Assembly (NCBI RefSeq): GCF_036507355.1
Contig: NZ_AP027877.1
Source of the DNA: Escherichia coli
GTDB lineage: Bacteria > Pseudomonadota > Gammaproteobacteria > Enterobacterales > Enterobacteriaceae
DNA: 64,000 bases
Strand: one strand, 5' to 3'
Shown here: piece by piece, positions 61,166-61,343 of the stretch
Layout of the letters: every line of letters begins with the position of its first letter
How positions within the stretch are numbered: position 1 is the first letter of the stretch
Notes under the pieces: model-generated
What the model was told of the DNA's origin: nothing
The model's database searches: none
The model's input: the letters and a program-made list of their open reading frames with translations, nothing else
Made by a program: the position numbers and the translations under genes

Positions 61166-61240
61166 ATCATTATCTCATTACAAAGTGAAAGAGAGACGTA
61201 GCGCCAGCGCCACCAGCGTTACAAACCAAAGCGGATAAGT
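61166..61240 (-). pseudogene. arsB: 3'-terminal remnant of arsenite efflux pump arsB, fused to ars-promoter-like sequence; arsR absent
   Basis: Minus strand encodes ...FLTYPLWFVTLVALALRLSFTL-stop immediately before arsC with the usual short gap; TTGACTTATCCGCTT (ars promoter -35 region as I recall it) lies directly upstream; no arsB body or arsR in the window. Confidence 0.55.
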
Positions 61241-61343
61241 CAAAAACATATATGGTTTAACGAATGCGTATGTGCAGAGGAAGGTAATAGGTGTGAATTT
61301 TGAGTTGGCTATTCATTTGAAAGGAGGTCTGAATCAGGACGTA

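Follow-up and report, generated by a model that had tools for sequence, protein, structure and literature searches.

The closest described counterpart of the locus analyzed here is the chromosomal ars region of Escherichia coli phylogroup B2. Sutterlin et al. (2018) describe B2 isolates that carry only arsC between gor and slp, some phylogroup E isolates that share this B2 gene order, retention of arsC in all isolates of all clades, and arsenite MICs below 128 mg/L for all isolates without arsRB (PMC5923176). Similarly, Amin et al. (2022) give the lowest As(III) MICs for ST131 isolates without arsR and arsB (PMC9731454). We examined a stretch of 64,000 nucleotides of E. coli DNA (referred to as the window) and found that it carries a naturally occurring, already published arsC-only allele of the chromosomal arsRBC operon. 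The breakpoints of the deletion are defined here to the nucleotide, which is an addition to the known genotype. A preliminary description of the window had regarded arsenate reduction without arsenite efflux as an odd combination. It is not, since among complete E. coli genomes about 20% carry the genotype, which has been published for B2 and ST131 strains together with arsenite sensitivity (PMC5923176, PMC9731454). Taken together, the analyses make it highly probable that the window holds an arsC-only allele derived from a single old deletion that became fixed in B2 and recombined outward, with arsC left unregulated and a small fusion open reading frame (ORF) arising at the junction as a by-product.

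Anatomy and distribution of the deletion

By blastn against K-12 MG1655, window positions 60600-61226 align to arsC and the final 49 nt of arsB, and positions 61229-61441 align to the interval from agrB to the ars promoter, where the match stops 38 nt before the arsR ATG. The locus contains the following features.

58890-60113: yhiS, intact ORF of 407 aa, no NCBIfam match
60740-61165, minus strand: arsC, glutaredoxin-dependent arsenate reductase, intact, 141 aa (ORF and NCBIfam profiles)
61178-61226, minus strand: 3' remnant of arsB, the last 15 codons plus stop plus 1 nt (blastn to K-12 arsB, 4677-4725)
Between 61226 and 61227: deletion junction (comparison with K-12, O157 TR01, JX21CE8, and HH45)
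61227-61255, minus strand: ars promoter remnant, with operator-like CCAT-N7-TTTG (61255-61241), -35 box TTGACT (61243-61238), and the first 11 nt of the spacer (O157:H7 TR01 comparison)
61341-61425, minus strand: AgrB antisense sRNA (DinQ antitoxin), single copy, with terminator hairpin and U-run at ~61343-61371 (Rfam RF02891, 92.2 bits; fold)
61700-61783, plus strand: dinQ, type I toxin, the left-hand neighbor (ORF; annotated dinQ at the same relative position in homologous loci)
61837-63189, minus strand: gor, glutathione reductase, conserved flank (ORF)

The K-12 ars promoter reads TCATATATGTTTTTGACTTATCCGCTT/CGAAGAGAGACACTACC, followed further downstream by the arsR ATG (slashes mark the breakpoint here and below). 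Relative to K-12, 1684 bp are missing (2993-4676 of locus L001, with endpoints set using the HH45 deletion allele as a guide), covering the second half of the promoter spacer, the -10 box, the 5' untranslated region (5'UTR), arsR, and arsB codons 1 to ~414. Of the 429 arsB codons, 15 are retained and 414 are gone. All intact alleles in our E. coli collection lose their match at the same base, the edge of the arsB remnant. On the promoter side, the window shows identity or near-identity to the intact alleles of O157:H7 TR01 and JX21CE8 up to CCGCTT, and the promoter remnant is identical to the intact TR01 promoter up to the junction. Two bases between the aligned segments, TG, were at one point considered filler nucleotides. 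This idea was dropped because the HH45 deletion allele, which reads CCGCTTCG/GTTTGTGACG at the junction, showed them to be the promoter CG with a C-to-T change.

These alignments to K-12, TR01, and other intact alleles bear out the core of the preliminary description, namely that a deletion internal to the operon, reaching from its promoter into arsB, removed the repressor and the pump and left arsC beside a promoter remnant. The string that it had taken for ars promoter, TTGACTTATCCGCTT, is the real -35 region (61243-61229, minus strand, by K-12 alignment). The alignment to K-12 arsRBC that it had proposed as a check has now defined the endpoints and identified the junction sequence as ars promoter. 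Its estimate that about 20 codons of arsB remain was too high, the actual remnant being 15 codons and the stop.

Searches of the whole 64-kb window by tblastn and blastn with K-12 ArsR/arsR gave no real match, and the same searches for arsB returned only the 15-codon remnant at 61178-61226. The components of an intact arsRBC operon were sought with the following outcome: arsR, arsB, and a complete ars promoter are absent, and arsC lies at the expected locus. The order of the neighborhood is gor-dinQ-agr-ars-yhiS-slp, reversed relative to K-12, with arsC as the only ars gene between gor/dinQ and yhiS/slp. The deletion is a loss and not a translocation of arsRB, the outcome that would have undercut the preliminary description: no arsRB is present elsewhere in the window, and genomes carrying the junction are essentially all without arsRB anywhere.

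Among 5426 complete E. coli genomes, the deleted arsRB segment was present in 4319 and absent from 1107. The junction was contiguous with a 1151-nt query in 1106 genomes and was found in 1111 with shorter junction queries. Carriers are mostly B2-type, such as O127:H6 and ST95 strains, with dozens of non-B2 carriers that include O145 STEC and pig, otter, frog, and water isolates. The window and seven B2-type loci share an identical junction, CCGCTTTG/GTTTGTAAC. All 13 deletion-type loci that we retrieved have identical breakpoints and fall into three flank backgrounds (B2-type, window-type, and HH45-type), with flanks differing by up to ~8%.

Several neighboring features also vary among strains. 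AgrB is present as one copy in the window, O157 TR01, the B2 loci, and HH45, and K-12 carries tandem agrA and agrB, indicating that the K-12 tandem duplication is polymorphic. The interval from arsC to dinQ is ~199 bp shorter than that of the window in AVS0223, THO-015, SSGw1, and HH45 (L004, L013, L014, and L015), with AgrB still there. The yhiS gene, intact in the window, is interrupted by IS5 in K-12, carries a frameshift according to the annotation of the closest relatives, and survives in B2 strains as a fragment of ~380 nt. In 14EC033 (L009, 3085-4166), a window-type deletion strain, both slp and yhiS are missing, a further decay of the locus. Outside the ars region, the heme receptor gene chuA (53003-56253) is split in the window by an IS3-family insertion and is intact in the close relatives JX21CE8 and 14EC033.

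53003-54130: chuA, N-terminal part
54525-55343: IS3 transposase orfB
55249-56253: chuA, C-terminal part

Possible transcription and retention of arsC

The retained gene is intact. ArsC scored 301.2 bits against the NCBIfam profile NF007456 (cut-off, 242) and 137.2 bits against TIGR00014 (cut-off, 106), and its translation contains Cys12, Arg60, Arg94, and Arg107, which we take to be the catalytic residues of R773-type ArsC. The gene differs by 2 nt from that of the intact-operon strain JX21CE8, is 97-98% identical to K-12 arsC, and occupies the gor-dinQ-agr/yhiS-slp locus in synteny with K-12 and 15 other loci. Directly downstream of it (60570-60700) lie palindromic repeats that are presumably REP-like (GCCTGATGCGCTACGCCTGTCAGGCCTAC and a second inverted copy).

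How this gene would be transcribed is less obvious. With the -10 assigned from spacing, the native ars promoter would consist of TTGACT, 17 bp, and GACACT, preceded by the operator, for which footprinting work by the Rosen laboratory reportedly gives the consensus TCAT-N7-TTTG. Because the deletion took the native -10 box away, arsC has not simply kept this promoter, and its transcription would depend on a -10-like element formed at the junction. At the junction, TTGACT is followed after 17 bp by TGT-AACGCT, a spacing that, as read, is unchanged from the native promoter.

61215-61223, minus strand: putative extended -10 element (TGT AACGCT) rebuilt from arsB sequence at a distance of 17 bp from the -35 box (read from the sequence)

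The -35 box, the 17-bp spacing, the TG, and A2 and T6, the two most critical positions of the hexamer, are invariant in 13 of 13 deletion alleles, across which arsB sequence supplies TGT and then (G/A)AC(G/T)CT. With the left breakpoint held fixed, the combination of A2, T6, and TG at 17 bp would result from 0.75% of alternative right breakpoints in arsR-arsB, and at 16-18 bp from 2.25%, figures that are to be read as describing a pattern spotted post hoc. About 13% of them would yield a hexamer equal in quality to the native one, and AACGCT itself agrees with the consensus in only two of its six positions. A consensus promoter and terminator scan made no call at the junction. However, the scanner likewise fails to call the authentic K-12 ars promoter and overlooks both the promoter and the terminator of agrB, and its silence at the junction is thus uninformative.

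Constitutive transcription of arsC from a putative promoter made by the junction is therefore a plausible reading of the sequence, given that any such promoter would be constitutive with ArsR absent. The likeliest source of arsC transcripts would be this rebuilt promoter, combining the retained TTGACT and a 17-bp spacer with the TGn-extended AACGCT from arsB, and a secondary source would be read-through of the terminator of the constitutive AgrB sRNA. AgrB lies upstream of arsC on the same strand, and both AgrA and AgrB are known to be constitutively expressed and to end in Rho-independent terminators (PMC3567139). In the window, RNA folding gives the AgrB terminator a strong hairpin of 14 bp, so that read-through into arsC should be limited; a fold of the arsC leader revealed this terminator and nothing else distinctive (z = -2.4). 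By either route, ArsC would still be made, without arsenic regulation. The promoter geometry kept across the junction offers a concrete, testable explanation for the persistence of an intact arsC. Our literature searches found no published arsC transcription data for any arsRB-less strain, no published sequence-level anatomy of the ars promoter, and nothing relevant on arsC expression or phenotype in the uropathogenic strains CFT073 and UTI89 or in Nissle, the single CFT073 match being the paralogue yffB.

Alternatively, arsC may be a silent remnant whose only promoter was destroyed and which, lacking meaningful expression, has so far escaped decay. We consider this possible, if on the unlikely side. 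In its favor, the native -10 box and 5'UTR are gone, arsC has a weak Shine-Dalgarno sequence and no longer any translational coupling to arsB, and a weak junction hexamer is combined with a strong AgrB terminator. In addition, one of the sampled deletion alleles, that of 14EC033, has an IS1 inserted in the 3' end of arsC that replaces the C-terminus after ~residue 122. Nevertheless, arsC is full length in the other 12 of 13 alleles despite a flank divergence of ~6-8%, Sutterlin et al. report the gene in all isolates of all clades (PMC5923176), and the -35 box, TG, A2, and T6 have not varied among alleles.

Substitution patterns bear on the same question from both sides. Across all deletion alleles sampled, the segregating sites in arsC comprise 38 synonymous and 17 non-synonymous changes (ratio, 0.14; p about 1e-12), which argues against a silent gene, whereas the B2-type alleles alone show 4 and 5 (ratio, 0.39; p=0.15; small sample), a ratio not significantly below 1. 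Changes confined to B2-type alleles must post-date the deletion, and the 4:5 count is thus compatible with relaxed constraint; the low ratio outside B2 may reflect import from intact-operon lineages. Pairwise and segregating-site dN/dS values for arsC accordingly lend weak support, the within-B2 comparison being small and non-significant and the non-B2 comparison being confounded by recombination. On balance, these patterns suggest that purifying selection has likely acted on arsC after the deletion.

A more far-reaching proposal would be that these particular breakpoints survived and spread because they rebuilt a working, unrepressed arsC promoter, with introgression from B2 proceeding under selection and not drift. 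We regard this as doubtful. If true, ~20% of E. coli would make ArsC constitutively without a pump, with selection operating via relief from the cost of ArsB/ArsR or via a non-arsenic role of ArsC.

Probable origin and spread of the deletion allele

The sequence surrounding the deletion in the window is not that of phylogroup B2. Its flanks are ~92-93% identical to B2 alleles and 99% identical to strains 48, GDSC2227PM, TB06052, and O145 RM9872, and they represent an O145/O157-like, chuA-positive background. The same haplotype is found with an intact operon in JX21CE8 (99.0% identity over 5.1 kb), whose arsB tail reads GTTTGTGACGCTGGCTGCG, as do those of K-12 and O157, and the corresponding sequence of the window is TG/GTTTGTAACGCTGGTGGCG. 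Of the 16 alleles compared, only B2-type deletion alleles otherwise contain the four window markers that lie within ~25 nt of the junction (the T of TG, GTA, and GGTGG). B2-specific markers that occur only beside the junction point to one old deletion that was spread by recombination.

Furthermore, the number of junction-linked markers is graded: all are kept in B2-type alleles, four in window-type alleles, two in 33F4 and ES5, and none in HH45. This series fits one event, after which intact local alleles, through recombination, overwrote the flanks step by step as far as the boundary of heterology. We propose that, in a single old event of illegitimate deletion, the ars promoter was fused at 11 nt past its -35 box to the final 49 nt of arsB; that the resulting allele would have become fixed in phylogroup B2; and that homologous recombination may then have moved it into other chuA-positive lineages, including that of the window. 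As the marker pattern indicates, recombination has thus carried a loss-of-function allele across phylogroup boundaries.

A third version of the deletion allele, with the same breakpoints and fully K-12-like flanks, is present in HH45 (L015, ~1940-2020) and also in HH97 (H117). As HH45 has none of the B2-linked markers, a single origin requires either flank conversion up to the junction or that HH45 represents the ancestral state, and its version may have been the form from which the others derive or may be an end point of flank conversion. The alternative, that the same deletion arose repeatedly and independently at a hotspot, draws on these fully K-12-like flanks, on the sharing of breakpoints by three flank backgrounds, and on the similar hexamers GACACT and GACGCT located 6 nt downstream of the two breakpoints. 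However, no microhomology was seen at the two breakpoints on inspection by eye, and the junction variants of window-type alleles match those of B2-type deletion alleles and are not found in the intact counterpart of the same haplotype, a result that independent events would not yield. Recurrence is therefore less likely than a single event with overwriting of the flanks, and we consider it improbable.

A separate observation concerns the AgrB terminator region (61343-61375), which is B2-like in the window (GAAGAGTAAAAAAACCGACGCGAAG) and K-12-like (GGAAAGT-AAAAAACCGACGCAAAG) in the otherwise 99%-identical strain 48 (L002). This difference points to further small-scale mosaicism at the locus.

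A by-product of the junction is the hydrophobic 23-codon fusion ORF that the preliminary description had pointed out and that does exist.

61178-61249, minus strand: fusion ORF MFLTYPLWFVTLVALALRLSFTL, with 8 promoter-derived and 15 arsB codons (ORF list)

Its frame is open in all deletion alleles and its product is hydrophobic, as a functional small membrane peptide would be. This possibility nonetheless appears very remote. The hydrophobicity is merely inherited from the last ArsB transmembrane helix, no Shine-Dalgarno sequence precedes the ORF, and its ATG (61249-61247) precedes the -35 box by 5 nt, such that a transcript from the junction promoter would exclude the start. Moreover, the start is GTG in B2-type alleles, and 3 of the 23 codons differ non-synonymously between alleles (Y5C, R18H, and L23S). 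The fusion ORF is probably an accident of the junction without function.

Two further scenarios for the locus can be set aside. B2 is often placed as an early-branching phylogroup, and on that ground an arsC-only arrangement might be taken as ancestral, with arsRB inserted in other lineages. We give this almost no credence, because the 49-nt arsB fragment and the ars -35 box and operator make sense only as leftovers of a complete operon, and because Sutterlin et al. also conclude against it from congruent phylogenies (PMC5923176). A recent deletion private to the strain of the window, for which nothing beyond the local sequence speaks, is similarly negligible given an identical junction in 1111 of 5426 genomes, including alleles with ~6-8% different flanks.

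Comparison with known ars systems

The absence of ArsR and ArsB is a consequence of the deletion, and the strain of the window is predicted to be arsenite sensitive, a phenotype that two studies report for strains of the same genotype (PMC5923176, PMC9731454). The direct importance of the allele is small, as it represents a documented lineage polymorphism that explains the arsenite sensitivity of B2 and some other E. coli. It may be of use as a genotype-to-phenotype marker for arsenic susceptibility. Anyone building arsenic biosensors in a B2 chassis strain, for example Nissle 1917, should also take it as a caution.

Of the known systems, the arsC-only locus of B2 and ST131 is the nearest, occupying the same gor/dinQ-slp site and likewise keeping arsC alone (PMC5923176, PMC9731454). 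The junction in the B2 strains O127:H6 E2348/69-derived, ST95-32, and AVS0223 is nucleotide-identical to that of the window. The flanks of the two loci are only ~93% identical, however, and B2-type markers are limited in the window to ~25 nt around the junction. The available portions of the B2 and ST131 papers contain no description of the breakpoints or of the promoter remnant (PMC5923176, PMC9731454).

The K-12 arsRBC operon lies at the same chromosomal site and has the -35 box and operator region in common with the window. In contrast to K-12, the window is without the -10 box, the 5'UTR, arsR, and 414 of the 429 arsB codons, and it has one copy of the agr sRNA versus two. Plasmid operons of the R773 type (arsRDABC) encode an ArsC of the same family and follow the repressor and operator logic of the window's ancestor. 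Unlike these operons, the window has no arsD, arsA, or arsB, and the plasmid matches in our collection were only distant (81-87%). An arsRDABC operon is known as a second ars locus in ST69.

[quoted passage not shown] Aquaglyceroporins, GlpF among them, move As(III) in both directions, and in S. meliloti AqpS replaces ArsB (PMC6138428). In the strain of the window, As(III) generated by ArsC would leave only passively, for example through GlpF. By this analogy, arsenate reduction without ArsB need not be absurd. The two cases differ in that S. meliloti has a dedicated channel gene within a regulated operon, whereas the window has no linked channel gene and an exit through GlpF is inferred. The S. 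meliloti operon illustrates, by functional analogy, how ArsC could still benefit an arsC-only cell.
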